DNA of 64,000 nucleotides from a virus, in the IMG/VR virus record IMGVR_UViG_3300028304_000465. The stretch is one strand, 5' to 3'. A model generated the notes under the pieces. That model had not been told where the DNA came from. It was given only the letters and a program-made list of their open reading frames with translations, and did not search any database. Below are positions 2,009 to 63,598 of the stretch, piece after piece. The position numbers were made by a program, and so were the translations under genes. Positions within the stretch are counted from its first letter, which is position 1. Each line of letters opens with the position of its first letter.

Positions 2009-3028
2009 ATGACAACGCTCGACCAAACTTCCCCCGAAGAAGCAGTACAGATGTACCTCAAGTACCGTGAACCAGAAATCAGTCAGACGACACTCTACGA
2101 ACACAAGTGCCGCCTTAACCGCTTTCTGGAGTGGTACGACCGCGACGACATGACCAAGATGACTCGGAAAGTCGCCGCGAAGTATCGCTTTTACCGAACC
2201 GATGAGGTCGCACCGACGACGCTGGAGAACGAGATTCGCACCTTCCGGCTGTTCATCCGATTCTGTGAGGACTTCGGATGTGTCCCTGAAGGTGTTGCAA
2301 AGCACATCGACGTGCCAACGGCGTCCAAGGACCATCGCTCCCGAGACGTGAGCCTTGAAGAGTCAGAGGCCGACGCTATCCTCGACTACCTCGGAGAGTA
2401 CCACTACGCTTCGTTCAAACACGTTCTCTTCCACCTGATGTGGAACGTTGGAGCGAGAATCGGTGGTGTCAGAGCGCTCGATGCAGGTGACTTCCGAGAG
2501 AGTCCCGACCCCGGCGTAGACGGGTGGTTCCTCGACTTCCAAGACCGCCCCGAGCAGGGGACACCGTTGAAAAATAAATGGAAGTCCGAGCGGAGAGTGC
2601 CAATCGGTGACACCCTCACTCAAACAATACAAGATTGGAAGGAGCATCATCGCCCCGATGTAGAGGACAATGAAGGGCGCAAACCGCTTCTTGCTACCGA
2701 ACAGGGCAGACCACACAAGACCACTATCCAGCGCCACATCTACGGGATGACGCGACCCTGTTGGTACGGCGCAGACTGTCCTGAAGAGCGCGACCCCGAT
2801 GAGTGTGAGGCCGCCGGGCCGAAGCAAGCCGCGTCGAAGTGCCCCGCGTCTCGCTCGCCTCATGCCCTTCGACGTGGTAGGGCAACAGCGAACCTCAACA
2901 AAGGGATGACGAAAGACATGACCAGCGAACGCATGGACATGTCTCGTGAAGTGCTTGACGAACACTACAATAAACAGACCGAGGAGGATAAGCGACGACT
3001 CCAGCGGAAGTTCCTTGACGGGGACTAA
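2009..3028 (+). CDS. int: tyrosine integrase (SNJ2-like haloarchaeal family)
   Basis: Catalytic R (GARIGG), HxxR (SPHALRRGR), Y (VLDEHY); N-terminal SAM-like domain; adjacent to tRNA fragment. Confidence 0.92.
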   Translation: MTTLDQTSPEEAVQMYLKYREPEISQTTLYEHKCRLNRFLEWYDRDDMTKMTRKVAAKYRFYRTDEVAPTTLENEIRTFRLFIRFCEDFGCVPEGVAKHIDVPTASKDHRSRDVSLEESEADAILDYLGEYHYASFKHVLFHLMWNVGARIGGVRALDAGDFRESPDPGVDGWFLDFQDRPEQGTPLKNKWKSERRVPIGDTLTQTIQDWKEHHRPDVEDNEGRKPLLATEQGRPHKTTIQRHIYGMTRPCWYGADCPEERDPDECEAAGPKQAASKCPASRSPHALRRGRATANLNKGMTKDMTSERMDMSREVLDEHYNKQTEEDKRRLQRKFLDGD

Positions 3029-3222
3029 GGCTCTTCCCCTTCAGTCCCCGTGAGGACACGGAGCATTTCGACTGTTGTATCTTTGTTCTCTCTATCAAGA
3101 GATTTCACATCCTCGATTACTGATTCGATAATTTTCTTATCTACGCCTCCATCGGTAACTTCATCGAGGTCAACCTGATGCTCTTTCAGTAATTCATGGA
3201 TTTCATCAGGTAATTCGCTCAT
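3025..3222 (-). CDS. hypothetical protein (65 aa)
   Basis: Acidic ORF convergent with the integrase. Confidence 0.6.
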   Translation of the reverse strand: MSELPDEIHELLKEHQVDLDEVTDGGVDKKIIESVIEDVKSLDRENKDTTVEMLRVLTGTEGEEP

Positions 3223-3279
3223 GGTTACGCTGTCCTTCTATTTCTGCTACTTTAGGTTTTCTGGATTTGTGCATCCTTC

Positions 3280-3957
3280 TCACTCGTTTTCTTCTCTTAC
3301 GCTGTCACGAAAGTTCTTTCGCCCACCACCCTTCGCGCTTTGTTCTTCGAGGAATTTTTGATACTGCTTTCGGGCGAAGCCTACCTTCTTGTTTTCCAGA
3401 GTTCCGTCCCACTTCACCAACTCGCGGATGTCTACTTCTCCGACGACAGCGAGGAAGTGAGTCACCATGTTCTCTGGCCCCCACAGGTGTTCTTGCTCGG
3501 CCATGATTTTTTGGAGGTCCCAACTTTCGTGAGGAGTGATGCGTTCGGACACCTCGTAGGGGTCCCACGGTATTCCGTTATCTCGGCCCGAGATGTCTGT
3601 TACTTCTACGTCCCGCATCGTTTTACCTTTCTCCAACGTGAAGTAGATATGAGCTTCAGCGTATCCTTCGCAGGGAAAGAATAGCCGTTTCTTGGAACAG
3701 TTAGGGCAGTACGTAGCCAGCGGAACGAGTGGCCTTTCACGATGGATATAGTCCGGTATCTGTGTACTTCCTTCGAAGGTGTCGTTTATCACATCGTCAG
3801 CCACATAGTGAGCAACACGGGGATGAGAAGTGTAGTTAACACCTTTCGAGCAGAAATCACAGACAAAGTGTTCCTCACCGGGATCATCGGGGTTGAACTC
3901 TGACCCCTCGAACTCTTCTTCTATCTCTTCGTCGGTGAAGTGTGGGTTGAATCTCAT
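3280..3957 (-). CDS. hypothetical protein with two CxxC motifs (225 aa)
   Basis: CDFC and CPNC; acidic. Confidence 0.75.
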   Translation of the reverse strand: MRFNPHFTDEEIEEEFEGSEFNPDDPGEEHFVCDFCSKGVNYTSHPRVAHYVADDVINDTFEGSTQIPDYIHRERPLVPLATYCPNCSKKRLFFPCEGYAEAHIYFTLEKGKTMRDVEVTDISGRDNGIPWDPYEVSERITPHESWDLQKIMAEQEHLWGPENMVTHFLAVVGEVDIRELVKWDGTLENKKVGFARKQYQKFLEEQSAKGGGRKNFRDSVREENE

Positions 3958-4412
3958 GCGTGTATCTCCTCATGGTCGTACTGTTCGTGTAGTGCCTCGA
4001 TGTACTTTTCTCTATCTTCATCACCCTCAAACTCTTCTCGGATGTTCTCTCCACTCTCGCTTTGATCGTGTCGGAGAAGATCGAGACAGGTGTTGCACAG
4101 CCCTGCTGATACTTGGTCCATCTCGCCGTGACACGTATCGAAGAACTTACACTTCAGTTCTTCATCGTCAACTTCGGGCGTCCAGTTCTCGTGTGCTTTA
4201 TCCATCCAGTAGCTTATCTTCGAGGGAGTTGTCCCGAGGACGTGGGCTACTTCGTATTGGTACGTGTGCTTTTCGTCTAACTGGACCATCAGTTCATGGT
4301 CCTTCCACGGCTCATCTCTGCTCTTGAAAGCGGGATGGGGTGACGGGCCGAGTTCGTCTTCGAGGTCGCGTTCAGTCTTGGCTGTCATGAGTACACTCTT
4401 CTCCATTTTCAT
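3954..4412 (-). CDS. HTH plus Cys-rich protein (152 aa)
   Basis: PWKD...EVAHVLGTTPSKISYWMDK HTH-like segment; CxxxxxC...CNTC. Confidence 0.7.
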   Translation of the reverse strand: MKMEKSVLMTAKTERDLEDELGPSPHPAFKSRDEPWKDHELMVQLDEKHTYQYEVAHVLGTTPSKISYWMDKAHENWTPEVDDEELKCKFFDTCHGEMDQVSAGLCNTCLDLLRHDQSESGENIREEFEGDEDREKYIEALHEQYDHEEIHA

Positions 4413-4944
4413 CTATCGGTACGACCCCGCCGCCGCAGTGGGGACATGAACCGAGAGCGAGTATTGGCTTGCCAACGTTGCCACAGTTACAACACCGGGA
4501 CTTTACAGCATCTTCTGGAAGTAGGCCAGTCATGTTCCTGTTTCCAGAGTCCGGCCGCAACCCTCACAGGTAAACTGAGACTCGGCGTATTCGGCCATGA
4601 GCGTGTAACTCGCCCCTTTTCGCCAATTCCTGTGTTCACACTCCGTACAGATGATGCAGATTGCTTTCTGTTGGGACTCCTCTGCCTCTTGCTCGTCGGG
4701 GTGGTCGATGTCAACCATTCTTCGGATACTGTTCTTCGAGACGAATATTAGCGAGCGTTACATCAGCGTCTTTCTGGTTGTCAACAGTTTTGATAACCGA
4801 TGAGTCGTCGTGTTTTGCCTCGACGCAGAGGCGAACGTCGTAGCCCCGTTCTTCGAGTTTGTCCCGAAGAGCGAGGACTGTTTCTTCATCCATTGGTTCT
4901 GTTTCCCACGTATCCGCCGCTCTCGTTGCACGACGGTCATTCAT
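4372..4944 (-). CDS. three small overlapping ORFs (4372-4560 and 4530-4718 Zn-finger; 4711-4944 hypothetical)
   Basis: CCNCG/CPHCG; CTEC/CEGC; acidic; start-stop overlaps. Confidence 0.6.
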
Positions 4945-6975: not shown

Positions 6976-7746
6976 TTATACCATCTTGTCTCTTTTACGT
7001 GTTAGTGAAGGCTCTGTGTCTTGTCCTTCAGGGTACAGCCAATCCCTGAACGTCCGTTTCTTTTCTCCGTAGAACGTGAGACGATAGATTTCTGACTCGT
7101 AGATGGGTGGGTCCATCGGAAGCCAGTCTGCTACCTTCTCTAACTGTTTCTCGGAACTGCTTGCTATTTGTATGTGTTCAGGGACAACAGTGCCATCTGC
7201 ATCGAAGAGGCCCCGAGTGAACGCCACTCTAAGTTCCTCACCGATGAGGGGTGGTAGTGCTTCACTTGTCGTCTTATCCCTGTCACATCCGAGTTCAACT
7301 AATGACTCTACAAACTCTTTGTTCCCAATCTTCACCCGATAACCGTCTTTGGGTTGTTGGAGTTTGTGACCGCTATCTATCGCGTCTATGAACTTTTGGA
7401 TATGAGACTTGTCGCTCTCTTTCAGGTGAAGCACACAGGAAGCGTGGTCATCGGTGAGCGAGACGTAGCCGTCACCGTAGAGGAACCCGAGCCAGTACGC
7501 CTTCTCGGTCGTGTCCACCTCATCGAAGTACGACCTGTTGAGTGGCTTCTTGCGCCATTCGCTTGTCTGTCTCGACTCTAACCCTACGGCTTCTTTTGCT
7601 TCTTCCCACCCTCCCCACCGCTTCGCAACGGTCTTACGAGAAGGTAGTTCATCGAACTGCTGGTACTCTCGTGCGGTCGGGGAGTCACCGACTCTCCGAG
7701 CCGCCTCAAGCAACGCCGCCTCGCACTCTTCCTGTGTGTAACTCAT
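6976..7746 (-). CDS. free-standing LAGLIDADG homing endonuclease with N-terminal helical repeat domain
   Basis: AYWLGFLYGDGYV and AFTRGLFDADGTV motifs; N-terminal EECEAALLEAARRVGDSPT..Y...PS..T...RWGGWEEAK. Confidence 0.85.
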   Translation of the reverse strand: MSYTQEECEAALLEAARRVGDSPTAREYQQFDELPSRKTVAKRWGGWEEAKEAVGLESRQTSEWRKKPLNRSYFDEVDTTEKAYWLGFLYGDGYVSLTDDHASCVLHLKESDKSHIQKFIDAIDSGHKLQQPKDGYRVKIGNKEFVESLVELGCDRDKTTSEALPPLIGEELRVAFTRGLFDADGTVVPEHIQIASSSEKQLEKVADWLPMDPPIYESEIYRLTFYGEKKRTFRDWLYPEGQDTEPSLTRKRDKMV

Positions 7747-10499: not shown

Positions 10500-10780
10500 A
10501 GTGGAATCACCCGTGCTTCCTTATCCAACATCGCCCGCTCGATGAGGCTACGAAGCACGATGCCCTCCGAAAGCGTGTCCTCGAACGCCGTGTCAGCGGC
10601 GAGTCCTTCCTCGCCCGGCGAGATGGAGACGCCGAGTTTGACTCGCTCGACGCCGTTACTGAACTCGATACGCGCCTCGTCGGGAACTTCATCGAGGTCC
10701 GTATGAGGGGATTCAGTGGCGTCTACGGTATGAGCGTAGAACGCTTCGACCGCATCGCTGAACTGCTGTACCCCACTCAT
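10496..10780 (-). CDS. hypothetical protein (94 aa)
   Basis: Acidic ORF; ATGA overlap. Confidence 0.65.
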   Translation of the reverse strand: MSGVQQFSDAVEAFYAHTVDATESPHTDLDEVPDEARIEFSNGVERVKLGVSISPGEEGLAADTAFEDTLSEGIVLRSLIERAMLDKEARVIPL

Positions 10781-10908
10781 CGGTTTAGTATCGCGTCGTG
10801 GTATCGGCCCATGATGGCACGCAGGTTAGTCGTGTTGTAGTTCTCGCGGATTCGGTCAACGTAACTTTTCTTTGCTTTCTCTCGAACGTTATTGGATACG
10901 TTTCTCAT
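10777..10908 (-). CDS. small basic protein (43 aa)
   Basis: MRNVSNNVREKAKKSYVDRIRENYNTTNLRAIMGRYHDAILNR; directly after cassette B leader. Confidence 0.55.
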   Translation of the reverse strand: MRNVSNNVREKAKKSYVDRIRENYNTTNLRAIMGRYHDAILNR

Positions 10909-11023: not shown

Positions 11024-11085
11024 TATCAAACAATTGATCCGGAGAGGGTTAAATCTTTATGCCATAACCCGATGAGGGGGTTGTG

Positions 11086-13680: not shown

Positions 13681-16479
13681 TTACCATGTGAGTTCGAGGC
13701 AGTTCGTAACGTTCGAGCGCAGTTCTTCGAGGTCAACCCCCTCGTCGGTGGGGTCGATACCTGCATCGTGAAGTGCGAGCAGAATCTCATTAATGCCGCC
13801 GCTGTTGTAGCTCTCCATCCAGTCGTACACGCCACTCTCGTTGTCCCACTTCGGCGTCTCTGCCTTCTGTTTGAGTTCACGCCGAGTGGAGCCACTGATT
13901 TTCGTTTCCGAGCCGGGGAAGCGAATGGGGATACGCTTCGTACTGAACCGAACAGTGAGCATTTCTCCGCTGTCAATATTGAGTAAGTGACTTCTGAAGG
14001 CGTAGGCGGCCCGCTCGAAGGTCCGAGAGTCGATGACACCTACTGTGAACTCGTCATCTTCGTTGAAAGAATAGGACAAGCTAAGTGCCTTCTTCGCGTA
14101 GAGGTTACGGAGTCGGATTGTCGTGTCGTCATCCTGAAGGAGACGCTTTTGCTTCTTCGATGTTGCGTAGAACAGCACGATCTTCTTGTTATGATTGGCC
14201 ATTTCCCCCACGGTGAGCGGTCCACCGGCCGTTGCTATAACCGTGTTTTCTGACCACTCCGTGAACTCTTCGTAGGTCATGACCCGAGGAGAGTCGATGA
14301 GAGCATCGTATTCATCGGTCGTGACCGACGTGATGGCGGCAAACCTCTGCATCGAGTAGTGGTCCGAGATGTTCTCATAGTCAGCCCCTCGGGGAAACAC
14401 TACGAAGAAGTTGTGACCGTCGATGGGATTCCCCGCCTCGATGCGGCCGTTGATCCTTTCAATAGTCCAACGATGGTCTATCTTCTTGTTCTGTGAGTTA
14501 GACCGAATCTTCAGTGTACTCTGTTCGAGAGAAGAGTTACTGCCGTCTCCCCCCTCATCGGTTTTGACAGTTTTGGTGTGTCTCTTGTGAATACTATCAG
14601 AAACGTCGAAGTCATGTTCATCACTCTGTTCCAACGGCACTTCTTTCAGGTAGCCGAACCCGAAGTGTTTCTCGTAGAAGTCGTACTCCGAAGCACTACC
14701 TAACACGATCACAGCGGCGTTGTCGTAGGTATCGTTTACAACTTGGTACTGATCCGTGAAGTTGCCTCCTGACGAGGCCGCCATGAACGTTTCATCGAGG
14801 TCGGCTTTAGCGAGGATGTTACCGAGCAGTTTCTCGGAGCGGCGCTTCTTCTTTGAGGGGTCGTGGGAGTCAGGGACAGCGTAGTCCACTTCCTCGAAGA
14901 GCTTTGCCACCTTCGCGCACATTCCGTCGTCCCAATCAGGCAGGTAGTCGCTATCCTGAAGGTAGTCCGTGATGTTATCCACGTCCATCGAGTAGGGGCC
15001 GTGGTAGTCCACCATACGGTAGAATACCACCCACTCGTCCTGATTGTCGTTCACCGCTATGGCGGGATGCTCTGCCTCCTCCATCTTCTCCGCAAAGACT
15101 CCTGCTTGTTTCTCTTCCTCGGCCTCCATCAACTTCGTTAGATACTGGAAGAACTGCTTGGCTTGACTGTCCTTCTGAAGCCTGTCACGATCTCCGGTTG
15201 GCTCGGGAAGCACGATGTCGTCCTCGTGGACCTCTGCGATGGCCTCTTCACGAGGATCGTCGGAGGGGTCTGCCACGACCATGCCGTCCTTGAAGTACAG
15301 CCCACGATGAGGGCCGTGGACAATACGGCGTTGTTCGTCGTGAATCTGAATTGCTGTATTCCAGAGCGACTTCACGTTGTGACCTGTATTGCGGTCGATT
15401 CGCATAGAGACGAGCCATGTATTTGGAGCCTTGTACGACGAAGCCACGTCAGGCCCGGCAACGATGCTGAACTCACCGGGACGGTCAACTTGGATGGGTG
15501 GGTTATTATGGTACTCTGCGATGTCGGTTCCTCCGTACTCTTCCTTCTCGATCACTCGACCGTTTTCGTGTTCGCGGTACAGCACCGGAACCCGAAGCAT
15601 CTCAGAGTACTTCGCCACCCAATCTTGGATGTTGTCGATGTTGATGCTATCCTGAATCGGAATCGTGAACCGAGTCCCTGTGAACTCTTCAGGGTCGAAC
15701 CCGTCGGGAGTTTCATCGAGTTCCTTCACACCACCGAGCTTGGCGTAGAAGTGGATACCCGAGGCATCCTTTGGTGTCTCGGGATTTACGCTTCGGGTTA
15801 GCACGTTCATGCCACCTTGCTTCCCCGTAATGTTACCGAAGGTCAGCGCTCCCATCCCCATCCGACCGCCCGTGTCGCCGTCCACGATGGCTCCGCTGTT
15901 AAGGGTCGTGTTGTAGGCTTCGACCACCTCACGGCCCGTCATGCCGATGCCGTTGTCCTCGGTCACGATCTCTCGCCCGTCTCGGTAGAGGTCGTAGGTG
16001 ATGGTGGGGTCGTACCCGATGTCTCGGGCCGCTTCGACCACAGCCGAGAGGGGTTGTGGAACCTCGATCTTCTTCAGGTCGCCCATGTCAGTTTCAGCCC
16101 ACTCCTGAAGCACCTTCTGTGGGTCGTCGTCATTCGTTACTGTTTCGCCAGTCTCGGCATGAACCCACATCGTTTGGGTGAGCGAATCAGCACCGTAGTC
16201 GGGGTGATTCCGGAGCAGGAACCGACACTTTCGAATACACGCTGTCTCGTGGTTCTGCTGGTGTTCTCGCGCCCATGCTTCGTCGCTGTCGTAAATCATG
16301 TCCGACAGCATCTCCGTAAGGCGTTCGTTGGAACTCACTTCACGCTCCACGAAGCCTGTTTCACCAGTATGCTCTTCAATCGCGCCTCCACTCTCCATCT
16401 CGAAGTCGGCGGTTCCGACGTTACCCTCTGCTTCTTCGATACGATTCGGCTCGGTCGTGTCCGGCAGGTTTTGACTCAT
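13681..16479 (-). CDS. GHKL (Hsp90/MutL-type) ATPase-domain protein, rIIA-like (932 aa)
   Basis: N-box AWAREHQQNHET, G1 TEDNGIGMT, G2 GRMGMGALT, G3 GTRFTIP. Confidence 0.75.
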   Translation of the reverse strand: MSQNLPDTTEPNRIEEAEGNVGTADFEMESGGAIEEHTGETGFVEREVSSNERLTEMLSDMIYDSDEAWAREHQQNHETACIRKCRFLLRNHPDYGADSLTQTMWVHAETGETVTNDDDPQKVLQEWAETDMGDLKKIEVPQPLSAVVEAARDIGYDPTITYDLYRDGREIVTEDNGIGMTGREVVEAYNTTLNSGAIVDGDTGGRMGMGALTFGNITGKQGGMNVLTRSVNPETPKDASGIHFYAKLGGVKELDETPDGFDPEEFTGTRFTIPIQDSINIDNIQDWVAKYSEMLRVPVLYREHENGRVIEKEEYGGTDIAEYHNNPPIQVDRPGEFSIVAGPDVASSYKAPNTWLVSMRIDRNTGHNVKSLWNTAIQIHDEQRRIVHGPHRGLYFKDGMVVADPSDDPREEAIAEVHEDDIVLPEPTGDRDRLQKDSQAKQFFQYLTKLMEAEEEKQAGVFAEKMEEAEHPAIAVNDNQDEWVVFYRMVDYHGPYSMDVDNITDYLQDSDYLPDWDDGMCAKVAKLFEEVDYAVPDSHDPSKKKRRSEKLLGNILAKADLDETFMAASSGGNFTDQYQVVNDTYDNAAVIVLGSASEYDFYEKHFGFGYLKEVPLEQSDEHDFDVSDSIHKRHTKTVKTDEGGDGSNSSLEQSTLKIRSNSQNKKIDHRWTIERINGRIEAGNPIDGHNFFVVFPRGADYENISDHYSMQRFAAITSVTTDEYDALIDSPRVMTYEEFTEWSENTVIATAGGPLTVGEMANHNKKIVLFYATSKKQKRLLQDDDTTIRLRNLYAKKALSLSYSFNEDDEFTVGVIDSRTFERAAYAFRSHLLNIDSGEMLTVRFSTKRIPIRFPGSETKISGSTRRELKQKAETPKWDNESGVYDWMESYNSGGINEILLALHDAGIDPTDEGVDLEELRSNVTNCLELTW

Positions 16480-16873: not shown

Positions 16874-18265
16874 TTAACTCCACGTCTCGTGTTTTTCCGC
16901 GATGTGTTCGTTTCCGTCGTACTCTTCGATGGTGAACTCCACGCCGTCAGGAATTTCGACCACCTTTAGCGACGACGTTCGGGTGTTTACGTCTTCTCCA
17001 AGTGCTTTCACACAGTCGATGAGGTCGGGGTTCTGCCGAAGTTCGATGTTCCGGTGGGTGTCATCGACAAGGCGATAACGACTCCCGCGAGTTTTCCCAT
17101 ACTTGGAACTTTGGCTATCCACGAGTTCAGCGTTTGGGTCGGCTATACTACCGTTATCGTACTCCGTTACTTTCCAGTCACGGTTCTCAATTAGCCACTT
17201 GCCCGCTTCGGTACTAATTCCAAAACCACCGAAGCAGTTGTTGATGACTACTTCAGTCATCGCTTTCCTCCGGCTCGAACTTCATCACGATGCGCTCTTC
17301 TTCGTAGTCGTCATCGAGTTGCCACACGTCAGCTACGCGAAGGCCGACTTCCTCGGCGGCCTCGATGACCTTGAAGGTCATTCCCTTTCGGGGAACAGAA
17401 ACCCGAAGATAGCTTGGGTCACGGCGGTTCAGTTCAGGATTGTTCACGATGGGCCTCGACCGACTTCCGTCAGGGTGAAGCCATTCGTGGGAGGTGACAA
17501 TTGCGTGCGTTGCCTCGACATAGTTCTCAATCCGTTGTTCGGGTTGGGTTGCGCTCATGTTAGATTACCTTGAACTCGTAGCCGTTTCGCCACACGTTCT
17601 GTTTCTCGACACTCATCTCGACTGTTCCCTCGAAAATGGCGATGGTATAGCGGTCGCCGTGAATCTCTTTCACGACACCATCGACCATCTCGCCCGGATT
17701 GACACGGGCCAGTACCTCTTCGCCTTCTTGAATCGTTTTGATGCTCATGATACCCGCTCCGAAGGGTTCCGCCGATTACCGGCGTGAACGATTATCTTCG
17801 CGTTCACCCAATTCTCGAACTCGACAGGCTCCGTTTTGCTTGTCAGGAGAAAGGCATCTCCTAACTGCTCACCGTAAACCTCAGCCCGAACCACATCACC
17901 CTCCCTGCTGAAGAGGATGCCTTCGATCCGTACTACGTCGTCGCCGTTTCGATTCCAGAGGTTCTTTGCACGGTTCCGTTGTCCACTGTCGAGGGGGCCG
18001 TCCATTTCGGGCATCAGGCCACCCCATACTGCTTGTCCTTCGCTTCAAGCCAGTCCAGAAGGCCCGTGAAGTTCTCATCGGTCACACGGAACCGACCCCC
18101 TCGCTGGAGGCCACCCTGCGTGACCACCACAGAGCTGTTAACGCGGTGAAGGATGAAATCACGCCACGCTACTGCCTCGAAGTGGCCGTCAACGAGGCCC
18201 GCCACGAGGCCGATCTCTTGTTCGTCCGTTGCGTCGTCAATCCGTGAGACGTTGGTTTCCGTCAT
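16874..18265 (-). CDS. five small ORFs (16874-17260, 17253-17558, 17560-17748, 17745-18014, 18014-18265)
   Basis: Coupled acidic ORFs; 16874-17260 starts with the phage-common VINNCFGGFG motif; the operon starts at a GGGACACAACC leader. Confidence 0.65.
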
Positions 18266-25535: not shown

Positions 25536-25585
25536 TTGAATGCGGAACACCCACCTCATCGGTTTACGACCGATGAACTGTAAAA

Positions 25586-48625: not shown

Positions 48626-51250
48626 ATGGCATATTATAGTAGCGGGTATCTGGTTACTGATGCACGGCAGTCGGATGCAGAAGCATCAGAGCTGACGACT
48701 GAAATTAGTTCCCTCCCGACTAACACTTCAGTCGACGTAACTGTTTACCAAGACAAATCTGGAGGCACTACTGCTGACAACTCTGAATCTTTTTCTGTTA
48801 GCGATGGCACGACTAAATACTCATTAAGTAATTTCACCGCTTCTTCGGGAGCGAACTATTGGGCGCGATTCGATCTCTCTACGTCTGATTCATCTTCTAC
48901 GCCGTCAGTTGACGCTGTTACATTCAACTTCAAGCCTGAACCGCCGTCTTCTGTCTCGCTTTCTTACGTCGCTGATGACAGCCTCGACCTCACGGTAGAC
49001 GCCCCGAGTACGTGGGGAGATTCGATTGGCTCCTACGAGATTCGCATGGAACGTGATGGGTCTGGATACAATACGACACACGGGGGGCCGTCGAATCCAA
49101 GTGGGTCTACTTCGACGCAAACCTACAACTACGGCCCTTCTTCCGATTCTGAATATCAAAAACAGGTCGGTATCGACTCCTCGTTCAAGTTCCGAGTTCG
49201 AGCAAAAAACTCGGCTGGCACGTCAAGCTGGACGACTTCAGAGACGATTAGAACCACTCCTGCGCCGCCGACCGACGTAAACGTAAACCGTCCTGACGCG
49301 AATACGCTTGAGATTACCTTCACCGGGGGTGCTGATGCTTCGTCTAATTGGCGAGTGTTGGGCCGTGAGGATACTGGTAGCGGGTATAGTGGTTGGAATG
49401 AGTATGCGTACGATTACGGAAGTGCAGGCAAAGGAACAACGAAAACTGTCACTCTTAGCGTTGCGAACGGTGATATAAGCAAAGACGCTCGGTACCAGTT
49501 CAAAATCAAGCATTTCTTCTTCCAAAACTCAACCAGATTCCAGTCAGATGCAGTCTACGCCGACTACGGCAACAAAAACAACGTCTTCTTTGAGGATGGT
49601 TTAGAATCTGGAGACTTGAGCGCATGGAGCGGAGATCGAAGATTGGATGATGCTGATAGTGGTGTCCAATCAGGCTCACACAGTGACTTAGGAATTAATA
49701 GTGCTGATGAAGGAACGTACTACCTTCGTCTCGATGCTACTGACTACGTAGCAACGCCTGATTTCGATGGGACAACTTCAAGCAGTTCGCTGATCGTCCG
49801 TGCTGTCGTTGCCACGGGATCGATGGATAGTGCTTCGCAAAACACGAAAGTCCAAGTCATAGACCGAAACGACGGAGACGGGTGGCACACCATCGAATCG
49901 TTCTCTCACAAGTATAACAAGCAAGGCTGGACACAGATCACGACGATCATCCCATCGACACACGTCTCGTCTTCGATGTCGGTACGGTTCAAAGGGTATA
50001 GCGATGAGGGAGATCACTTTGCTGTTGACAGCGTAGCTGTCTCTGACATTCTTCACGAGTACACGAAGCCGGCCGCACCAAGTGCCTTATCGCTGGATAC
50101 GTCTACAAAACACGAAATTAGTGCTACGTGGACGGCAAATGCAAGCCTACATGGTGTCGATAACTGTTCTGACCGAGCGTACCTCTATCTCGATGGAACC
50201 CAAGAGAAAAAGAACTACCCCGGATTAACTGAATCTGAAACGTTCAATAGTCTCTTAGACGGGGAAGAATACGAAGTTATCATAACTACGGTACAGCACC
50301 AAGATCGTCATGGAGCAGGTGGCAATAACTATTGGACTTCTAACCAGCTAAATGGATTTGCTACAACCTTTTTCCCAATAGATACCCCATCTGCATCCGC
50401 TGACAGCGACACCAGCCTCTCGGTGTCGTGGTCTGACGTTTGGAACAACGAGGACGGCATTCGCGTTCACTATTCCAGCAACAGTGGCTCTACGTGGACG
50501 CAATTTAGCGATCTTGCCGCTGGAACTAATTCCGAAGTGATTACCGGACTCACACAAGACACGGAATATACGATCAAAATAGAGCCGTACACGGAACACG
50601 TCTCGAAAGATAGCGGAACGGACACAGCTATAACGTACCTCAACGAATTGAGGTTGACATCCTCTCATTCGTCATCTATCACGTCTGGTGTAGAGTCCCT
50701 AATTTCGCTTGACGTAGATGCCAGTTCCTATTCCAAACCGATGAGGTCGGGTAGTGCAAGGATTGTTAATCTTCTTGCATTGCCGTCTTCCCACACCACC
50801 TCATCGGTGTCGGCAAGTGAGCGTTCTTCTGTCGGTTACGAAGGACGTGAACCGAACTCTCACTGTCAACCGATCAATCACACGATCTTCAACGAACGCA
50901 CGTCGCTTGAAGTAGTCGATTACAACCTCAATTGGAACCGTGATGAAGTGGCGTGGTACACCGAGTGGTTCCAAGAAGAACGTATCATGGGCAACGAAGA
51001 CGTGCTTTCGGTTCGCTCTCTCGTGGTTGATGATGCAAAGGAACCGGCGGCAACCATCACCGTCCAATACAACTCTGACGGCGATGGGATAGTTGATGAC
51101 GAAAGTGAACCGATAGACACCTGTCAGGATGAAGAAGTCCACGACGTGCGGGGTGTTCCGGTGGATGAAGGCGGCTGGTATCGGCTGAAAATCACGAACT
51201 ACACCGGCTACAACGAAATCTACACTCTCGACATCGGGATGGTTAGATAA
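48626..51250 (+). CDS. large Ser/Thr-rich tail protein with FN3-like repeats (874 aa)
   Basis: PPSSVS, FRVRAKNSAGTS, PAPPTDV, PAAPSAL, YTIKIE motifs. Confidence 0.75.
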   Translation: MAYYSSGYLVTDARQSDAEASELTTEISSLPTNTSVDVTVYQDKSGGTTADNSESFSVSDGTTKYSLSNFTASSGANYWARFDLSTSDSSSTPSVDAVTFNFKPEPPSSVSLSYVADDSLDLTVDAPSTWGDSIGSYEIRMERDGSGYNTTHGGPSNPSGSTSTQTYNYGPSSDSEYQKQVGIDSSFKFRVRAKNSAGTSSWTTSETIRTTPAPPTDVNVNRPDANTLEITFTGGADASSNWRVLGREDTGSGYSGWNEYAYDYGSAGKGTTKTVTLSVANGDISKDARYQFKIKHFFFQNSTRFQSDAVYADYGNKNNVFFEDGLESGDLSAWSGDRRLDDADSGVQSGSHSDLGINSADEGTYYLRLDATDYVATPDFDGTTSSSSLIVRAVVATGSMDSASQNTKVQVIDRNDGDGWHTIESFSHKYNKQGWTQITTIIPSTHVSSSMSVRFKGYSDEGDHFAVDSVAVSDILHEYTKPAAPSALSLDTSTKHEISATWTANASLHGVDNCSDRAYLYLDGTQEKKNYPGLTESETFNSLLDGEEYEVIITTVQHQDRHGAGGNNYWTSNQLNGFATTFFPIDTPSASADSDTSLSVSWSDVWNNEDGIRVHYSSNSGSTWTQFSDLAAGTNSEVITGLTQDTEYTIKIEPYTEHVSKDSGTDTAITYLNELRLTSSHSSSITSGVESLISLDVDASSYSKPMRSGSARIVNLLALPSSHTTSSVSASERSSVGYEGREPNSHCQPINHTIFNERTSLEVVDYNLNWNRDEVAWYTEWFQEERIMGNEDVLSVRSLVVDDAKEPAATITVQYNSDGDGIVDDESEPIDTCQDEEVHDVRGVPVDEGGWYRLKITNYTGYNEIYTLDIGMVR

Positions 51251-51850: not shown

Positions 51851-52492
51851 ATGGCCCGAGATAAATTCAACTATACCCACGGAGACAACGGTAAAGCACC
51901 TGCATCGTCGCTCAACTTCGAGAAAAACGAACGCCCTGACGCACAGCACTTCGACTGGTGGTGGGCAACAGTCATCAACAAGATCAACAAAATTTGGAAC
52001 GAGTTTTCTCGGCTTGATTCCGATGACGACGGTGTTGTTGACGCCGCTGACGACGCCGACACGGTAGACGGGAAGCACTACTCCGACATTCAGTCGTGGG
52101 TGAACAACAACGCAGACGTTCCAAACGCAGATCAAGCTGATTCTGCTACCTCTGCGGGTGATGCTGATACCCTCGATGGATTCCACGCAGAAGACCTCGA
52201 CATGGAGATCGAGGACGACGGGACAGAAATAGCAGATCATCCTACTATCCTTAATGTTGGTACGAATCTGTCTGCCACCGATGAGGGGGGTGGAAAGACT
52301 ACTATCGGCGTATCGGGGAAAGTAGACTCTGCAAGTAATTCTGATACCGTCAGTGGGAAAGACGGAGTAAATCACCCTGCTGGTTCAGTTCCAGAGTTCG
52401 CTGACGTGTCTACTGGAGAGTCGGAAATGGACCGTGGTGAACGGTTCGTTGTTAAACAATCTGACGGCTACCACATCTACCTTGTAGAATAA
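51851..52492 (+). CDS. tail fibre protein
   Basis: Repeated DADTVDGKH/DADTLDGFH motifs. Confidence 0.7.
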   Translation: MARDKFNYTHGDNGKAPASSLNFEKNERPDAQHFDWWWATVINKINKIWNEFSRLDSDDDGVVDAADDADTVDGKHYSDIQSWVNNNADVPNADQADSATSAGDADTLDGFHAEDLDMEIEDDGTEIADHPTILNVGTNLSATDEGGGKTTIGVSGKVDSASNSDTVSGKDGVNHPAGSVPEFADVSTGESEMDRGERFVVKQSDGYHIYLVE

Positions 52493-53280: not shown

Positions 53281-53622
53281 ATGAATCCAAAAACGTACCC
53301 GGCGCAAATCAATCGCGTTGTCGATGGTGACACATTAGAAGTTGAACTTGATCTCTTTCCCGGCATCGAATATAAAATCACAGTTCGACTTCTTGGCGTA
53401 GATACACACGAAACATACGGGACAAAACATGAGAGTGAAGAGTATCAATGCGGTATAAAAGAAAAACAATTCGTTGAACAGTGGATTGAAAACACCGATG
53501 AGGTGAGAGTGAAAGTCCACGGTCAAGGCAAGTACGGTCGCTATCTCGCAGAAATCATGGATGGCGAAGACTCTGTTCTCAACGACCAGCTAATTGATCG
53601 GTTCGACGGCGTAGCCTACTAA
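53281..53622 (+). CDS. thermonuclease (SNase-like)
   Basis: VVDGDT, VRLLGVDTHE, GKYGRYLAEI. Confidence 0.85.
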   Translation: MNPKTYPAQINRVVDGDTLEVELDLFPGIEYKITVRLLGVDTHETYGTKHESEEYQCGIKEKQFVEQWIENTDEVRVKVHGQGKYGRYLAEIMDGEDSVLNDQLIDRFDGVAY

Positions 53623-53920: not shown

Positions 53921-54018
53921 GGCTTAAACATACTGCCACTACACCCCCTCATCGGTTTTAACAGTTCTATAGTTAACAGTACAGTATAACACTTCGCGCA
54001 CACACGCGAGACGCAACC

Positions 54019-58000: not shown

Positions 58001-58651
58001 AGTAACACCGAGGTCTGCCATGCTCTCCGGGTCTTCTACGCCGAAGAACTCTGCATCCTCCACACCATCGGTGTCGAGGAACGTGACGTACTCATCATCG
58101 TAAGAATCGTGAACCGCAACGGAGAGAATACGCGCCCCTCCCGGTGCGGGGAAGCCCGAACCACGGTCATCTGTCTCGATGTCCAGAGTCAGTACGCGCG
58201 GTTCTACGTCCATCTCGACAGGTTCTACCTCGTCAACTGAACAAACCGATGAGGGGGCGGAAGCACCAGTGACGAGTTCCTTATCAATACGAAGCCGGTT
58301 CGTGAACACCACGTCGGCTCCCCATGTCTTTTCCCATCTGTCGCGGAGGTCACGCACCGCTCCGGGGTGGGAAGCTACGACCTTCACGAGTTCCGTCGGG
58401 TCATCGCTGAACCGCTCTCGGAGCGGCATGAAGTCTGACCCTTCGTACCGAACGAGTTCGTCGTGGTCAGCCGGAGCAAGGTTGTCCTGCTCGTCGGCGG
58501 GGATGTAGAAGTAGGGTTCAAAGCCAGTCACCGTGATGGACTTTGCCACCCCCTCATCGGTGCGACCATAGAGTCGGACAACAACCTCGTCCAGCTCGTT
58601 GAACTCGTTCGGGTACAGCGTCTCTGTGTTTTGGATAGCAATTTCTATCAT
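55055..58651 (-). CDS. polB: family B DNA polymerase (intein-containing)
   Basis: Exo I DIET, Exo II GWN..FD, DLASLYP, K...NSYYG, YGD|TDS split by an intein. Confidence 0.96.
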   Translation of the reverse strand: MIEIAIQNTETLYPNEFNELDEVVVRLYGRTDEGVAKSITVTGFEPYFYIPADEQDNLAPADHDELVRYEGSDFMPLRERFSDDPTELVKVVASHPGAVRDLRDRWEKTWGADVVFTNRLRIDKELVTGASAPSSVCSVDEVEPVEMDVEPRVLTLDIETDDRGSGFPAPGGARILSVAVHDSYDDEYVTFLDTDGVEDAEFFGVEDPESMADLGVTEPDALNTFMSEREMLMKFAQWVQQKDPDIITGWNCGDSRTDGFDLPHIVARMENKHVSTSRLSREGYVKNKRKGDDGYRTSIRGRTTLDLMDTWVSTKFTKPDSKRLDDVAQDKLEDAKIEHTDKGFYELYRDNPAKFVDYNTKDTRLTVEINREENVLGFKKRLKDMIGVDWEQTRMNKDFVSMSVRRACHDHEVVMVTAYDNPHVIEAMEGNSDVNYDGAFVFPAFKGVKKNVVGKDLASLYPMTQAMLNASPDTLIDRKRAVKEDIPHVVAENGVTFRTDKDSIIKELVEEYDELKMEYKRELKELEYGTEKYEQMSENYGTTKTIFNSYYGYTGYDKSPLYNPKIAAAVTLTGQVVIKETARYVDEETEGSVAYGDSVPHFEPVYVREDGEVNILPIEQLHNEYDSGEFEVWSEDGWVTCTDTIRKPNRKQMYRVRTRNGVVHVTEDHGLLNESGNEIPPTEVEEGDTLMHTKLADAVGNTSEISHEKAWMYGVLVADGTAIDSQFKVTKNNRSVLTQIGYAMERVFGFDTEVKDYKESSGCLQLRSGDNEWGAVSKLCSKLQPKLYASDGKKKVPEDVLNGTKSVMRAFLDGYQFGDGDDDERYDKLFHRSYTNSHTLGAGLTYLLDRLGMDAGVNFRDNYGKEYPRIHSREDDGIRSEVLSVEQVEYDGDYVYDLSTENEHFNAGIGRLTVHNTDSNYVEYPEEWEQERVLEYAQGVCDDLNEEVYPALCSEFNIPEEDNRWFIELEMLATMFQSGSKKFYAYKSQWAEGMDFDEQVNGGEGKISISGYACVKSNFAPITKDTQREILHTILRDGSKQDVSDIMHEAASSIDARNPDWDRIGMPQGLGQKISKQKSEKENYYTWSTSGDHPQGAHPRGAWFANHLLDVDIGEGDQPSRVYLKPNLTVNGELVDVITFNDGSDLEPIEDELRMDAGKMQRKVLVNPMDDILDAFGVETQAALRGQVETQATLGGFC
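55904..56860 (-). mobile_element. intein (319 aa) with LAGLIDADG domain in PolB motif C
   Basis: Begins S after YGD and ends VHN before TDS; YGVLVADG and FLDGYQFGDG; lower GC. Confidence 0.92.
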
Positions 58652-60234: not shown

Positions 60235-61041
60235 CTACTCCGATGAGTGGGGGGTTCGCTTCCGTCGGTGGCTCTTTCCACCAACCGGAGGCAAGAGGGG
60301 TTCGGGGTTCTCCTGCTCGAAGGGTAGGTTCTCGTTGACCAGCGAGGCCATCCGCTGTCGGAGTAGCCCTTCTCTTCGGCCGTTGGTCAGGGTCAACATG
60401 GGTGGGTCGAACACCAGCAACTCACTGTAGCCGAGGCTGTTGAGTTCGTTCTCATCACGTTCTGCGAGGTCTACGGCATCGAACTCATCCTCGCCCTCTC
60501 TGCCGCGCTCTTGGAGCCTTTCAAGCCGAGTGTAGAACGGAGCTTTTACACGAATGAGGTACACATCGAAGTAGTCCGCCAGCACTTCATAGTCCGTTGT
60601 AGAGCGCACACCATCTACAATAGCGACATTGGGGTGAGAGCCACGTACCATCTCGACGGCCCACTTGGGTATCTGTTCGGCATCGTCGTCTCGGGTTTGC
60701 GCCGCCCACTCCCCAAGTTCGGCAGATTCGAGGCCGTCCGGTGCGTGTCGCCGGATGGCGTCACCCATCGAGAAAATTGGACAATCGTAGACTCGGCTAA
60801 GTTTGTCCGCGACGTAGGACTTCCCCGCTCCGGGGAGGCCACAGAGAGCTATTATAGCGTCAGGAGCTTGGCTCGGTCGAGCGGGTTTTTGTGAGCGAAT
60901 AGTTCCACCGATGGTTCCGAGTTCCGCCGCGTGTTCTTGTGTCGCTCTGTATTTTCCTGTCTCGCTGATAGTGTAGAGGACTTTGATGAGCGTTTCTACT
61001 GATTCGTCGTGGAGGGTGAGTTCGGTGTTGCCTTCAGTCAT
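60235..61041 (-). CDS. P-loop nucleoside monophosphate kinase-like protein (dephospho-CoA kinase/UPF0200-like)
   Basis: CGLPGAGKS, FSMGDAIR, IVDGVRS, R..RL..RGR. Confidence 0.8.
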   Translation of the reverse strand: MTEGNTELTLHDESVETLIKVLYTISETGKYRATQEHAAELGTIGGTIRSQKPARPSQAPDAIIALCGLPGAGKSYVADKLSRVYDCPIFSMGDAIRRHAPDGLESAELGEWAAQTRDDDAEQIPKWAVEMVRGSHPNVAIVDGVRSTTDYEVLADYFDVYLIRVKAPFYTRLERLQERGREGEDEFDAVDLAERDENELNSLGYSELLVFDPPMLTLTNGRREGLLRQRMASLVNENLPFEQENPEPLLPPVGGKSHRRKRTPHSSE

Positions 61042-61189
61042 GGTCGAGCATTTTGGAACCGCGTCAGCATCTCGTCGTACTGTTCTTGTTTCTCTTCATC
61101 GGGGGCGTCGATGTGGTAGCCCGACGCGAGGGCTTCGAGAAGTTGCTCGATATGGTCTGCGTCGTCTTCATCGAGAACCATTGGGACTC

Positions 61190-62215
61190 TCATCTGTTAA
61201 GACCCCAATTAGAGTCACAAATATTGAACATGTGACAATTACCGCCGTCGTAGTTACAAAGCGGTTGCGGCTCCGAGTCGAAGTTCTCGGGAGGGCCGTT
61301 CCCCTCAACTTGCTCGGGCATCTCTTGCATCCCCGTAACTGCCTCACAGATTGTTTCACGACGCTCTACATCGGGATAGGGAGACACGATGAGTTCGTCA
61401 GCGCCGGGGTAATACCCCGCTACGGCATCAACATCGAAGAACCTCTCGAAGAGCCACCCATAGTATTCCCCCTCAAGAAATATACCAGTATCTCGATACT
61501 TCTCATCGGGGATGCTTCCAGTCTTGTAGTCGATGATGGTTACGCCGTCACCGTCAACACCGATGAGTGAGCGGGAGTCCACGATAAGGTCTGCTCGCCC
61601 CATCCACGGCGCACTGCCGACGGGCGGCTCACCACTCACGTAGTCTGGATTGCCCCGGTCTTCGACCCACGACTCCGGGGGCTGTCCGAGCCACGCTTCG
61701 GCCTCGACCTCAACGGGGAGCCACAGGTCTTGACCCATCTGACGGGCAACCCGAGCGTCGTGGTCTGAACGGAGTGGGCCGTGAACGTCGATGATGTGGT
61801 CAGCGACTTCGTTCCACCTACGCTCCTCGAACCGGATGAACGAGCCGATCTGCTCAATCCACTGCGTGTAGTTCCGCCAGTGGGGAAGCAGGTCAGCGAA
61901 ACGCTCTGGTCGTTCTCCGTTTTCCTCCACGTAGTCCATCAGGTTGAGGTGGAACACCTCAAACGTCTCGTGGAGCCTGCTACCGCGTTCCATATAGTAA
62001 TTAGTAGGAGCGCGTTCTCCACAAATATAGGTCCAGTAAAATTTGGCTGGACATTTGAGATATTTCTTCACTCTCGACTTGCTGATGTATGGAAGTCCAT
62101 TTTCCAGCACTTCCTCGTCGGGCTGAAGAACCCTCTCCGGGTCAATTCCTTCGAGACGTGTCGGTTCTGGACGGTCAGCACTCGGGTCTGCTTCGTTGTT
62201 ATCGTATCTACTCAT
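61190..62215 (-). CDS. Cas4/RecB-like PD-(D/E)XK nuclease
   Basis: ISKSRV..YLKCP, G..LH, GRAD, IIDYKTG, C-terminal C..C...C (Fe-S). Confidence 0.85.
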   Translation of the reverse strand: MSRYDNNEADPSADRPEPTRLEGIDPERVLQPDEEVLENGLPYISKSRVKKYLKCPAKFYWTYICGERAPTNYYMERGSRLHETFEVFHLNLMDYVEENGERPERFADLLPHWRNYTQWIEQIGSFIRFEERRWNEVADHIIDVHGPLRSDHDARVARQMGQDLWLPVEVEAEAWLGQPPESWVEDRGNPDYVSGEPPVGSAPWMGRADLIVDSRSLIGVDGDGVTIIDYKTGSIPDEKYRDTGIFLEGEYYGWLFERFFDVDAVAGYYPGADELIVSPYPDVERRETICEAVTGMQEMPEQVEGNGPPENFDSEPQPLCNYDGGNCHMFNICDSNWGLNR

Positions 62216-63011
62216 GCTCCCCTCCACTTCTTGATTGTAGAAAGGGTAACGTGTTCGAGAACGTTCCTCATGACAGAGCGATTACCGCTGTGAGCAAGTT
62301 GTTCGTCAGTCAGAGTTTGGCGCTCGACTTTTGGTTCCTCATCCGGGGGATTGATAACTACGTAGATTTCAGTAGTACCACTCCCGAGGGGAGGCCTTGT
62401 CCGAAGTCCGCTAAGTACCGTAGTGATTTTCTTCATCGTTCTGGTGTTGTGTCTAATTTCTCTTCAAGCTCGCACACATGCTCTGTTATCTCAAGCGCCG
62501 AAGAGAAGTGAGTACGACCGCTCGCTGTCTCTTCGGTTTTGAACTCGATGACCGTGCGCTCCTGCGTAGCGGCGTGGGCCAGTATCTCCTGAAGCGTGTC
62601 GCGGAACGTCGGAGGGACGCCCACGTTTTCATCGTTCTCGCTCATTTCAGAGAACTCCCAAGATACTGCCGTGCTTGAGTACGGCGAGAACGCCGAGACT
62701 CAAAAGGACCAACGCTATCCAGAAACTCTTCGGTGGATTGGATGGTCCTTTCGATTTGCACGGCCAGTTGGTCGATATTTTCATCGAGGTTTCTGCCGTC
62801 ATCATCTTTAGTCATCCTCGACTACCTCGGCCACCTCCTCGATGGCACGGTTCAAGTCTTGCTCATCGAGTTCGAGTTTCATCTCGAACCGACGCATCTC
62901 TTTGGGAGTTTCCTCGTGGTCTTGCTTCACAAGAATAAGGTCTTCGAGGAACTGCGCGGGTTCATCTTGTGCGAGCGCGATTCGTTGGAGTGTAGTGTGT
63001 CGTTCAGTCAT
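62212..63011 (-). CDS. three small ORFs (62212-62436, 62433-62645, 62808-63011)
   Basis: Coupled acidic ORFs. Confidence 0.55.
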
Positions 63012-63598
63012 TGGTCATCTCTCATTTGTTCAATTTCGTGGGGCGGTCCAGAGATGGTGAGGCTCTTCTCGTCATTCCGAAGCAGTACCTCAGATTCATC
63101 CATTCGAAAGCCCAACGAGACAGAGGTGACGTGGTACTCGATTCCACCTATAGGAACCGTATCACCAATACAGTAGCCACCGACGACCATCCCATCTTGG
63201 GGTTCTTCTCGGCTCTGGTCATAACCCGATAAGGGGTCTTCTTCTGAGGCAACAGACTCCGCAAGTTCTGTGTGCATTGCTCCATATGGAACATCGTCCT
63301 GATGGGTTTCAGCAATGGACTCGTCCACGTTCATGTGATCGAGGACGAACCAGCCGTTGAATTCCCGACAGAACTTGTCGCCCCGCCTGAAGAACAGACC
63401 GAGTGAGTTCAGGTTCTCCGGGGTTACAGGAATTTCCAGCGTCTCCACGCCCTGATGTTCGAGTATCATGGCGAGAATTTTGCCGACCAGTTTCCACGAA
63501 TCTCCGTAGTCTTCGTTCTTTCGTTCGTACAGATCAGCAGAGTCAGCGAGAATTTCTAATGCCTCGCGCCCCCCACCCTCATCGGTTTCTTCAGTCAT
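63008..63598 (-). CDS. DUF1599-like (nucleotide-modification-associated) protein
   Basis: LYERKNEDYGDSW motif; ACAACC leader before the ATG at 63598. Confidence 0.6.
   Translation of the reverse strand: MTEETDEGGGREALEILADSADLYERKNEDYGDSWKLVGKILAMILEHQGVETLEIPVTPENLNSLGLFFRRGDKFCREFNGWFVLDHMNVDESIAETHQDDVPYGAMHTELAESVASEEDPLSGYDQSREEPQDGMVVGGYCIGDTVPIGGIEYHVTSVSLGFRMDESEVLLRNDEKSLTISGPPHEIEQMRDDQ

Follow-up and report, generated by a model that had tools for sequence, protein, structure and literature searches.

A dispersed, lineage-specific DNA word in haloarchaeal tailed viruses and its fixed copy upstream of the small terminase gene

The viral DNA stretch IMGVR_UViG_3300028304_000465 (64,000 nucleotides from IMG/VR, analysed whole and here called the window) contains the 8-mer CCGATGAG (complement CTCATCGG) 40 times, 21 on the plus strand and 19 on the minus strand. 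Here we show that this enrichment reflects selection on DNA and not on proteins, that the word follows virus lineage and not host, and that site number is maintained while positions turn over. Related lineages carry their own versions of the word—dialects—and the dispersed copies co-vary by dialect with an oriented copy just upstream of the small terminase gene, terS. We infer from these patterns that a protein reads the word, that this protein is viral and what its binding would do: the existence of a virus-encoded reader is highly probable, and as its mode of action we tentatively favour regulation from a master site at terS, with the dispersed copies as secondary sites.

The exact count confirms the roughly 40 copies on both strands that the original prediction had found by eye. 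Dinucleotide-preserving shuffles give 3.25 (standard deviation 1.8, maximum 8) and a third-order Markov model gives 5.7, with CCGATGAG and the overlapping CGATGAGG jointly the most over-represented 8-mers of the window. Gene calling yielded 106 genes covering 89% of the DNA. Thirty-two sites are wholly coding (18 as xCC-GAT-GAG, encoding Thr/Pro-Asp-Glu, 2 in sense frame 0, 11 antisense and 1 edge case) and the other 8 are noncoding, that is, 20% of the sites in 11% of the DNA. The enrichment survives the codon shuffle proposed in the original prediction as a challenge to it: permuting synonymous codons within each gene, with proteins and codon usage kept, lowers the coding count to 4.8 ± 2.0 (never above 14 in 500 trials) and permuting codon order lowers it to 3.2, against the 32 observed. 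When all 8-mers are compared with protein-preserving shuffles, CCGATGAG still ranks first in both the window and the virus HSTV-2. The preference for GAT at coding sites noted earlier is also real; after xCC, Asp-Glu is spelled GAT-GAG in 18 of 36 cases, GAT being the minority Asp codon (604 versus 1077 GAC). Enrichment over shuffles extends to both directions relative to transcription, 8-fold in sense and 5-fold in antisense, with sense-to-antisense ratios of 20:11 in the window, 19:17 in HSTV-2 and 33:36 in the virus HF1 (both classes above shuffles).

Aligned in register, the sites define a longer word, approximately ACACCGATGAGGKGGKK, in which the core is preceded by A, C/A and A; the extended form of CCGATGAGG in the window is about ACACCGATGAGG plus a G/T-rich tail. 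Positions +1 to +7 of this tail are G or T, G occurring in 30, 25, 27 and 31 of the 40 sites at +1 to +4, and the tail is also found at noncoding sites. The G-rich tail of the original prediction therefore stands for the window but not as part of a common word: the bases after the core are GCCGCC-like in HSTV-2 and TCGCC in locus L074, which makes the G-run peculiar to the window's lineage. All single-base variants of the 10-mer ACCGATGAGG occur at shuffle expectation, indicating sharp recognition. The resemblance of the word to a hammerhead ribozyme core (CUGAUGAG) was rejected: a C in the word takes the place of a U in the core, and nowhere in the window did an Rfam family score at or above its gathering threshold. 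Eleven copies of a second dispersed word, CCAGCACT, are present where 0.9 would be expected, always within genes and on both strands (for example, at 11343, 30248, 45027, 55849 and 62104).

By its sequence, the window is a haloarchaeal tailed virus and a new, separate lineage of the Hafunaviridae. Its head genes share about 72% DNA identity with HSTV-2, HRTV-7 and HCTV-6 and its major capsid protein is 79% identical to that of Mincapvirus, and we place it apart because TerL is only about 55% identical to the Mincapvirus protein. Among public runs, parts of the window were found only in halite metagenomes, and the genome contigs searched contained no provirus relatives. Copies of the word, or densities of the 9-mer, are distributed as follows:

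HSTV-2: CCGATGAG/CCGATGAGG, 46 copies (22/24); reversed-word control, 3
HRTV-7: CCGATGAG/CCGATGAGG, 45 copies
HCTV-6: CCGATGAG/CCGATGAGG, 45 copies
G001 (complete 70.5-kb IMG/VR contig): CCGATGAG/CCGATGAGG, 41 copies
L075 (17-kb piece of a 64-kb contig): CCGATGAG/CCGATGAGG, 13 copies
Seven Haloferacalesvirus genomes: CCGATGAG/CCGATGAGG, 2–7 copies each
HRTV-25: CCGATGAG/CCGATGAGG, 1 copy
HRTV-27: CCGATGAG/CCGATGAGG, 1 copy
pHV4 (Haloferax): 9-mer, 0.039 per kb
pHLAC01 (Halorubrum): 9-mer, 0.005 per kb
pNG700 (Haloarcula): 9-mer, 0.039 per kb
Window: 9-mer, 0.47 per kb

The word is the top 8-mer in five genomes (the window, HSTV-2, HRTV-7, HCTV-6 and G001) that span TerL divergence down to about 55% identity, and is at background in nine other Hafunaviridae (seven Haloferacalesvirus, one Laminvirus and one Minorvirus). 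By the terms of the original prediction, an equal frequency in the host genome would have counted against it; the haloarchaeal megaplasmids pHV4, pHLAC01 and pNG700 contain the word 12–100 times more rarely than the window does. HRTV-7 and HRTV-8 infect the same Halorubrum strain (B2-2) and carry different words, and the reader should therefore be virus-encoded. The idea of a genome-wide binding code accordingly stands as a working reading, without the host protein that had been offered as one possible reader.

An unbiased 8-mer over-representation scan of each genome or locus revealed the dialects. In all seven Haloferacalesvirus genomes, CATCGAGG is the top word, with 74–93 copies against about 8 expected and an extended form GCATCGAGG; the set comprises HF1, HRTV-8, HSTV-4, HRTV-10, HJTV-2, VOLN27B and Hardygib1 (L003-L004, L039-L058 and L066-L069), with (G)CATCGAGG as its word, and in HF1 the 75 copies compare with 22.6 in a protein-preserving shuffle. 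G002, L074, L076, L083 and L084 use CGATAAGG (for example, 16 versus 0.5 expected in 19.6 kb, 8 on each strand), extended to ACACCGATAAGGT. The words of L086, L087, L089 and HRTV-25 are CATTGAGG, ACCCAGAA(GG), TCATCGAG and GCAGGAAG, respectively. Most dialect words fit five variable bases followed by (G/A)AGG; L098, L099 and L101 have CTTCCCG-type words (CTTCCCGAC/T type) near terS. An enrichment of CGCGATGA in L073 was ambiguous and was left out of the list. In the literature searched, these words are not mentioned in connection with haloviruses; the bare words matched primers only.

The same genomes yielded further words. CGAGAAGG is 6–7-fold over-represented in L076 and L112 (16 versus 2.3–2.5), in L076 alongside CGATAAGG, so that this genome may carry two related words. 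G001 has a second word, TACAGCAC/TGTGCTGT, with 19–21 copies against 1.8, copies of which lie upstream of terS in HSTV-2 and G001. The second strong word of Haloferacalesvirus, AGTCTTTA/TAAAGACT (12–17 copies versus 0.6), is probably part of the published AT-rich intergenic repeats, and the 23–25 copies of ACCCAACC/CCCAACCA in HRTV-25 (L059-L062), nearly one-stranded (1+/23-), look like a leader or promoter element of early genes (compare GGGACACAACC in L075 and ACACAACC in HSTV-2). CGAAGAGG is absent from the whole genomes of HSTV-2, HF1 and G001, where its one-base neighbours have 10–27 copies, which suggests avoidance of a GAAGAG-containing target. The annotated nick hexamer of HF1, GTAAGT, bears no relation to the word.

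The only position found to be conserved across deep splits lies immediately ahead of the first gene of the late operon:

25555..25562 (-), anchor copy, reading CTCATCGG on the terS sense strand, 23 nt before the terS ATG
25586..26443 (+), terS, encoding the small terminase and opening the late operon, with weak Pfam matches to Terminase_6 and Terminase_4

The window TerS is 61–62% identical to the TerS proteins of HSTV-2 and G001, and 7 nt beyond its anchor copy stands a 7/8 match to the inverted partner (CCGATGAa). HSTV-2, HRTV-7, HCTV-6 and G001 carry CTCATCGG in the same orientation 17–20 nt before terS, and in all Haloferacalesvirus genomes the corresponding place is taken by ACTCGATGC, the complement of their own word (CCCTCGATGC in Serpecor1). 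An aligned set of TerS sequences, used to scan IMG/VR, extended the comparison (a lone TerS query found nothing there). Ahead of terS, L083, L084 and L085, of the CGATAAGG lineages, have CCTTATCG(G), L086 has CCTCAATG, L087 has CCTTCTGGGT and L089 has CTCGATGA; over the dialects, the forms found in this one orientation are CTCATCGG, CCTTATCG, (C)CTCGATGC, CCTCAATG, CCTTCTGGGT and CTCGATGA. A dialect-matched copy is present about 18–45 nt upstream of terS in all main lineages, with L091, L082, L112, HRTV-25 and HRTV-27 as exceptions or ambiguous cases. At these densities the chance of one copy in a given orientation in a 50-nt stretch is about 0.02, and matching in at least five dialects, each at about 0.02, is therefore far beyond chance. 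Just upstream of the anchor copy in the window lie two copies of a 12-nt palindrome, TGTTAGCTAACA, spaced by about 20 nt (25515-25545); HSTV-2 has a different inverted repeat at this place.

Conservation at other sites is strong over short distances and is lost over long ones. Among HSTV-2, HRTV-7 and HCTV-6, whose flanking sequences differ by 3–5%, HCTV-6 keeps 42 of 44 HSTV-2 sites (31.4 expected; 0.006 mismatches per base in the word, 0.044 in the flanks) and another comparison gives 42 of 42 (30.3 expected); over these close relatives, mismatches per base are 0.000–0.021 in the word versus 0.026–0.048 in the flanks. The sites are thus 5–10 times better conserved than their surroundings, a result that the original prediction had put forward as a check. 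From HSTV-2 to G001, at about 29% divergence, 7 of the 20 sites that can be aligned persist where 1.5 would be expected, and between the window and its relatives only 0–1 of 7, while totals hold at 40–46. Gains and losses among close relatives are single substitutions, such as CCGATGAG/TCGATGAG and CCGATGAG/CCAATGAG. Two orthologous positions have switched dialect: at G002:3620 and G002:7230, G002 has CCGATAAGG where both HSTV-2 and G001 have CCGATGAGG (G to A). The HSTV-2 copies, at 6800 and 8143, lie in the xCC-GAT-GAG frame of genes 10 and 11, so the switch to CCGATAAGG swaps Glu for Lys, and at both sites the DNA word is evidently followed at the protein's expense.

In addition to the anchor copy, the window holds the following sites:

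67..74 (-), noncoding, in the 64% G+C left end, without G-rich tail
2199..2206 (+), sense, T-D-E, integrase-like gene 2009-3028
2796..2803 (+), sense, P-D-E, integrase-like gene 2009-3028
4797..4804 (+), antisense (S-S frame) in 4711-4944(-)
7241..7248 (+), antisense (L-I-G frame), LAGLIDADG/HNH-repeat gene 6976-7746(-)
10776..10783 (-), gene junction; its internal ATG is the called start of 10496-10780(-) and overlaps the upstream gene's stop region
11069..11076 (+), intergenic, 9 nt beyond the stop of 11086-11862(-)
14554..14561 (-), sense, T-D-E-G-G, 932-aa GHKL/HSP90-like gene
18074..18081 (-), sense in 18014-18313(-)
18596..18603 (+), antisense, final codons of 18591-18911(-), 8 nt ahead of the next start codon
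18816..18823 (-), sense, P-D-E in 18591-18911(-)
19560..19567 (-), sense, acidic low-complexity part of 19404-20459(-)
23371..23378 (-), noncoding, 2-kb gene-free stretch
23440..23447 (+), noncoding, 69 nt from the 23371..23378 site, opposite orientation
26412..26419 (+), sense, acidic C-terminal tail of TerS
27329..27336 (-), intergenic, 19 nt ahead of the start of 27356-27571(+)
29222..29229 (+), sense, near the TerL C terminus
31905..31912 (+), sense in 31862-32353(+)
32205..32212 (+), sense, acidic linker of 31862-32353(+)
35139..35146 (+), sense frame 0 (P-M-S) in 34782-36815(+)
37100..37107 (-), intergenic, 8 nt ahead of the start of 37116-37328(+)
41497..41504 (-), antisense, 673-aa gene at the tape-measure position
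44046..44053 (+), sense in 43160-44572(+)
44272..44279 (-), antisense in 43160-44572(+), 226 nt from the 44046 site
45043..45050 (+), sense, T-D-E-G-G in 44958-45320(+)
45454..45461 (-), antisense in 45328-45645(+)
46230..46237 (-), antisense in 45646-47457(+)
47282..47289 (+), sense in 45646-47457(+)
50738..50745 (+), sense frame 0 (P-M-R), lineage-specific 874-aa gene
50800..50807 (-), antisense, same 874-aa gene, 62 nt from the 50738 site, convergent pair
52278..52285 (+), sense in 51851-52492(+)
53495..53502 (+), sense in 53281-53622(+)
53948..53955 (-), intergenic, late/early operon boundary
58246..58253 (+), antisense, N-terminal part of PolB
58553..58560 (-), sense, N-terminal part of PolB
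60240..60247 (+), antisense, final codons of kinase-like gene 60235-61041(-)
61502..61509 (-), sense, PD-(D/E)XK (Cas4-like) nuclease gene
61560..61567 (+), antisense, same nuclease gene, 58 nt from the 61502 site
63578..63585 (-), sense, residue 14 of 63008-63625(-)

The two orientations are interleaved along the genome with no polarity, in agreement with the absence of strand bias claimed earlier. The opposite orientation of close neighbours that had been noticed is real in the window (9 of 10 pairs) but is not a rule (4 of 10 in HSTV-2, 7 of 10 in G001 and 4 of 4 in G002); pooled neighbours alternate in 87 of 139 cases, a weak tendency. The coefficient of variation of all-site spacing is about 0.8, versus 0.96 for random placement, and reaches significance in no single genome; same-strand spacing is regular in G001 (p 0.036) and G002 (p 0.003) and not significantly so in the others, including the window and HSTV-2. 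The proposal that the word avoids 'foreign' DNA did not hold, given 0.55 sites per kb in genes common to relatives versus 0.53 per kb in lineage-specific genes, and a site inside the LAGLIDADG/HNH-repeat gene, a free-standing endonuclease gene at 6976-7746(-). PolB (55055-58651(-)) holds an intein with a LAGLIDADG trace. Positions 1-2000 of the window have 64% G+C, compared with about 54% elsewhere, and open reading frames without a homologue in any relative examined; these left 2 kb may be recently acquired DNA.

On the regulator mechanism that we tentatively favour, CCGATGAGG would be recognised by a sequence-specific DNA-binding protein that the virus encodes and that co-evolves with the word. 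Of the copies, one would serve as a fixed master site just upstream of terS, where occupancy by the regulator would control the onset of late-gene expression or packaging, and the other ~40 copies would be interchangeable secondary sites, spread over both strands at about 0.6 per kb where the proteins allow, that coat the genome, keep it silent or, during replication, titrate the protein; site number would matter and positions would not. We favour this mechanism because only it accounts for a terS copy fixed in place and orientation together with remaining copies that are free in position. On a broader reading, to which we would give somewhat less than even chances, the word acts as a genome-wide 'barcode' (9–12 nt, 0.6–1.2 copies per kb, with a terS master copy) in the Hafunaviridae and probably beyond, by which a fast-evolving viral protein could tell viral DNA from that of hosts or related viruses. 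If so, it would constitute a previously undescribed layer of virus self-recognition or immunity, the specificity of which is legible from genome sequence.

Pfam and PHROGs leave most early proteins unnamed, and the following protein is one candidate for the reader:

3954..4412 (-), candidate reader, 152 aa, helix–turn–helix plus four-Cys zinc ribbon, near the integrase gene, orthologue of HSTV-2 gp77

HHpred describes HSTV-2 gp77 as a 'Cro/C1-type HTH' protein (S3 Table, PMC8651126). The gp77-type protein is conserved in the CCGATGAGG and GCATCGAGG groups, and between the Mincapvirus and HF1 groups its zinc ribbon is similar while the putative recognition helix differs. TerS and the Cas4-like nuclease (61190-62215) are other family-wide candidates. 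A DUF932-like protein of 461 aa (7754-9139(-)), 66–68% identical to its HSTV-2 and G001 counterparts, and the 932-aa GHKL/HSP90-like ATPase (13681-16479(-)) occur together in all Mincapvirus-like early regions seen (L073-L076); both are limited to the CCGATGAGG/CCGATAAGG lineages and, being absent from the HF1 group that shows the same phenomenon, are unlikely to be universal readers.

Several observations weigh against a regulator with its operator at terS. The putative recognition helix of the gp77-type protein varies within the CCGATGAGG group, which makes this protein only a lead, and the protein was not found in L074, L076, HRTV-25 or HRTV-27. The operator role of the terS-upstream copy would be assigned from its position alone, and L091, with the word CGATGAGG, shows none within 70 nt of that gene. 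Some 80% of sites are intragenic, with neither orientation to transcription preferred, unlike stoperators (the dispersed repressor-binding sites of mycobacteriophages, discussed below). Sites near start codons have no common orientation (11:6 in one group, 3:11 in the other), and the weak same-strand regularity is not predicted for a regulator that binds duplex DNA.

That regularity would be more at home in an explanation that we rank second and consider unlikely, in which the word is a docking or start site for virus priming or initiation proteins, the terS copy lies in an origin, and the presence of copies on both strands lets forks of either direction use them. Equal strand use, independence from transcription and the keeping of number rather than position would fit, as would the neighbour alternation and the somewhat regular same-strand spacing of G001 and G002; the largest intergenic region is home to both the terS anchor and the palindromes. 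Known primase sites, however, are 3–5 nt long and not 9–12, just one or two copies stand at the putative origin, and the fixed distance (18–45 nt) and orientation to the terS ATG would be unexpected for an origin; moreover, neither the window nor HSTV-2 has more than a weak spacing signal, and no polarity switch occurs along the genome. A lineage-specific reader would be available in HSTV-2 and HRTV-25, for both of which HHpred annotates a fused PriS–PriL archaeo-eukaryotic primase (gp62 of HSTV-2) and a primase/DnaA-like AAA+/Zn-finger protein (gp64, arCOG07809; S3 Table, PMC8651126). Like the gp62 and gp64 types, a further candidate reader, a winged-helix phosphoesterase encoded in the family (PMC8651126), lies outside the window.

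Less probable again is a Chi-like form of self-marking, in which the word stops degradation or starts recombination by a viral nuclease or helicase (the Cas4-like PD-(D/E)XK protein, ERCC4 or helicases), so that viral DNA is spared or recombined and host DNA without the word is not. The rarity of the word in host-type replicons, its frequent occurrence in either orientation along a linear genome, dialects that resemble species-specific Chi and the family-wide conservation of the Cas4-like nuclease are all consistent with such a role. It would leave the fixed terS-upstream copy unexplained, however, and the sites show no end-directed polarity. Nor are the mosaic block boundaries among HSTV-2, HRTV-7 and HCTV-6 clearly tied to sites: 1 of 20, 2 of 16 and 4 of 28 breakpoints fall within 30 nt in pairs that are non-independent, leaving a boundary role unsupported.

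The position of the anchor invites the thought that TerS itself binds the word, the terS copy being a pac-type site and the dispersed copies concentrating terminase on viral DNA. Pac sites usually lie in or beside terS, the anchor follows the dialect in every lineage with this TerS family, and TerS is present in all genomes showing the phenomenon. We nevertheless regard this as improbable, as one packaging signal per unit is enough in known systems and some 40 extras would have no known use. The word is also missing from the exact 306–346-bp terminal repeats of nine isolates and from their boundary, GGT|AAST, an absence that rules it out as the terminase cut site (pac/cos).

A target of DNA modification or nicking (methylation, another base modification or T5-like nicks) is a still poorer candidate. 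The specificity is as sharp as that of restriction–modification systems and the asymmetric word occurs on both strands, although known phage nick sites are one-stranded only. We found no methyltransferase domain in the window's larger early proteins. Motif abundance has been tied to virus methyltransferases in the case of GATC (PMC8651126); yet HSTV-2, HRTV-7, HRTV-8 and Serpecor1, which are not in the methyltransferase table of that study, carry their words at full density. Finally, the idea that the word has no function and arose from codon or dipeptide preferences, mutational bias or the spread of repeats is scarcely credible: D-E dipeptides are common in acidic halophile proteomes and related words such as CTCGATGA are 2–3-fold enriched in all genomes, but the protein-preserving shuffle, the antisense and noncoding enrichment, the background level of one-off variants, conservation above the flanks and dialect co-variation at a Glu-to-Lys cost all contradict it.

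Should a viral reader of these words exist, the specificity of each hafunavirus would stand in plain sequence in its genome, offering a handle on late-gene timing, packaging, replication and perhaps the exclusion of relatives in archaeal viruses, as well as a natural series of matched proteins and sites (CCGATGAGG, CCGATAAGG, GCATCGAGG, CATTGAGG and others) for studying the evolution of DNA recognition. The words are also a simple marker for sorting metagenomic halovirus contigs into lineages. Genetic tools can be applied to HF1/HF2 and to the Haloferax and Halorubrum strains that they infect, which opens the question to direct experiment.

Among known systems, the stoperators of cluster A mycobacteriophages (the sites of the L5/Bxb1 repressor gp71) are bound by the phage immunity repressor, are oriented with transcription and lie mostly between genes. 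Like them, the word is a short asymmetric site with dozens of exact copies per ~50–70-kb genome, in and between genes, with one copy at a key position (a promoter in the case of stoperators) and with subgroup versions, which for stoperators evolve with the virus-encoded reader; unlike them, it is enriched in both orientations, 80% of its sites are intragenic and its fixed copy stands at the late terS operon rather than at an early lytic promoter. The DNA uptake sequences of Neisseriaceae and the uptake signal sequences of Pasteurellaceae mark the cellular genome for uptake by the competence pilus. They share with the word a density of about one copy per 1–1.5 kb, equal use of both strands, a location in tolerant gene parts, maintenance of number with turnover of position, and dialects; the word differs in being carried by a virus, in lacking any enrichment of one-off variants and in having a fixed copy ahead of terS. 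Phage P1 C1 operators and DnaA boxes with datA are likewise scattered, asymmetric, monomer-type sites of 9–17 bp, the number of which can titrate a protein; the P1 operators (~17) lie at promoters and DnaA boxes are cellular, whereas the word is viral and titration by it is only proposed. Chi, the FtsK-orienting polar and SpoIIIE recognition sequences (KOPS/SRS) and phage nick sites (T5, phiKMV and tf) are of the same 8-mer class, species-specific and read by DNA-processing machines, but all are strand-polarised, unlike a word found 21 times on one strand and 19 times on the other. By this comparison, the system would work most like stoperators and the dialects of uptake sequences, failing one defining feature of each.

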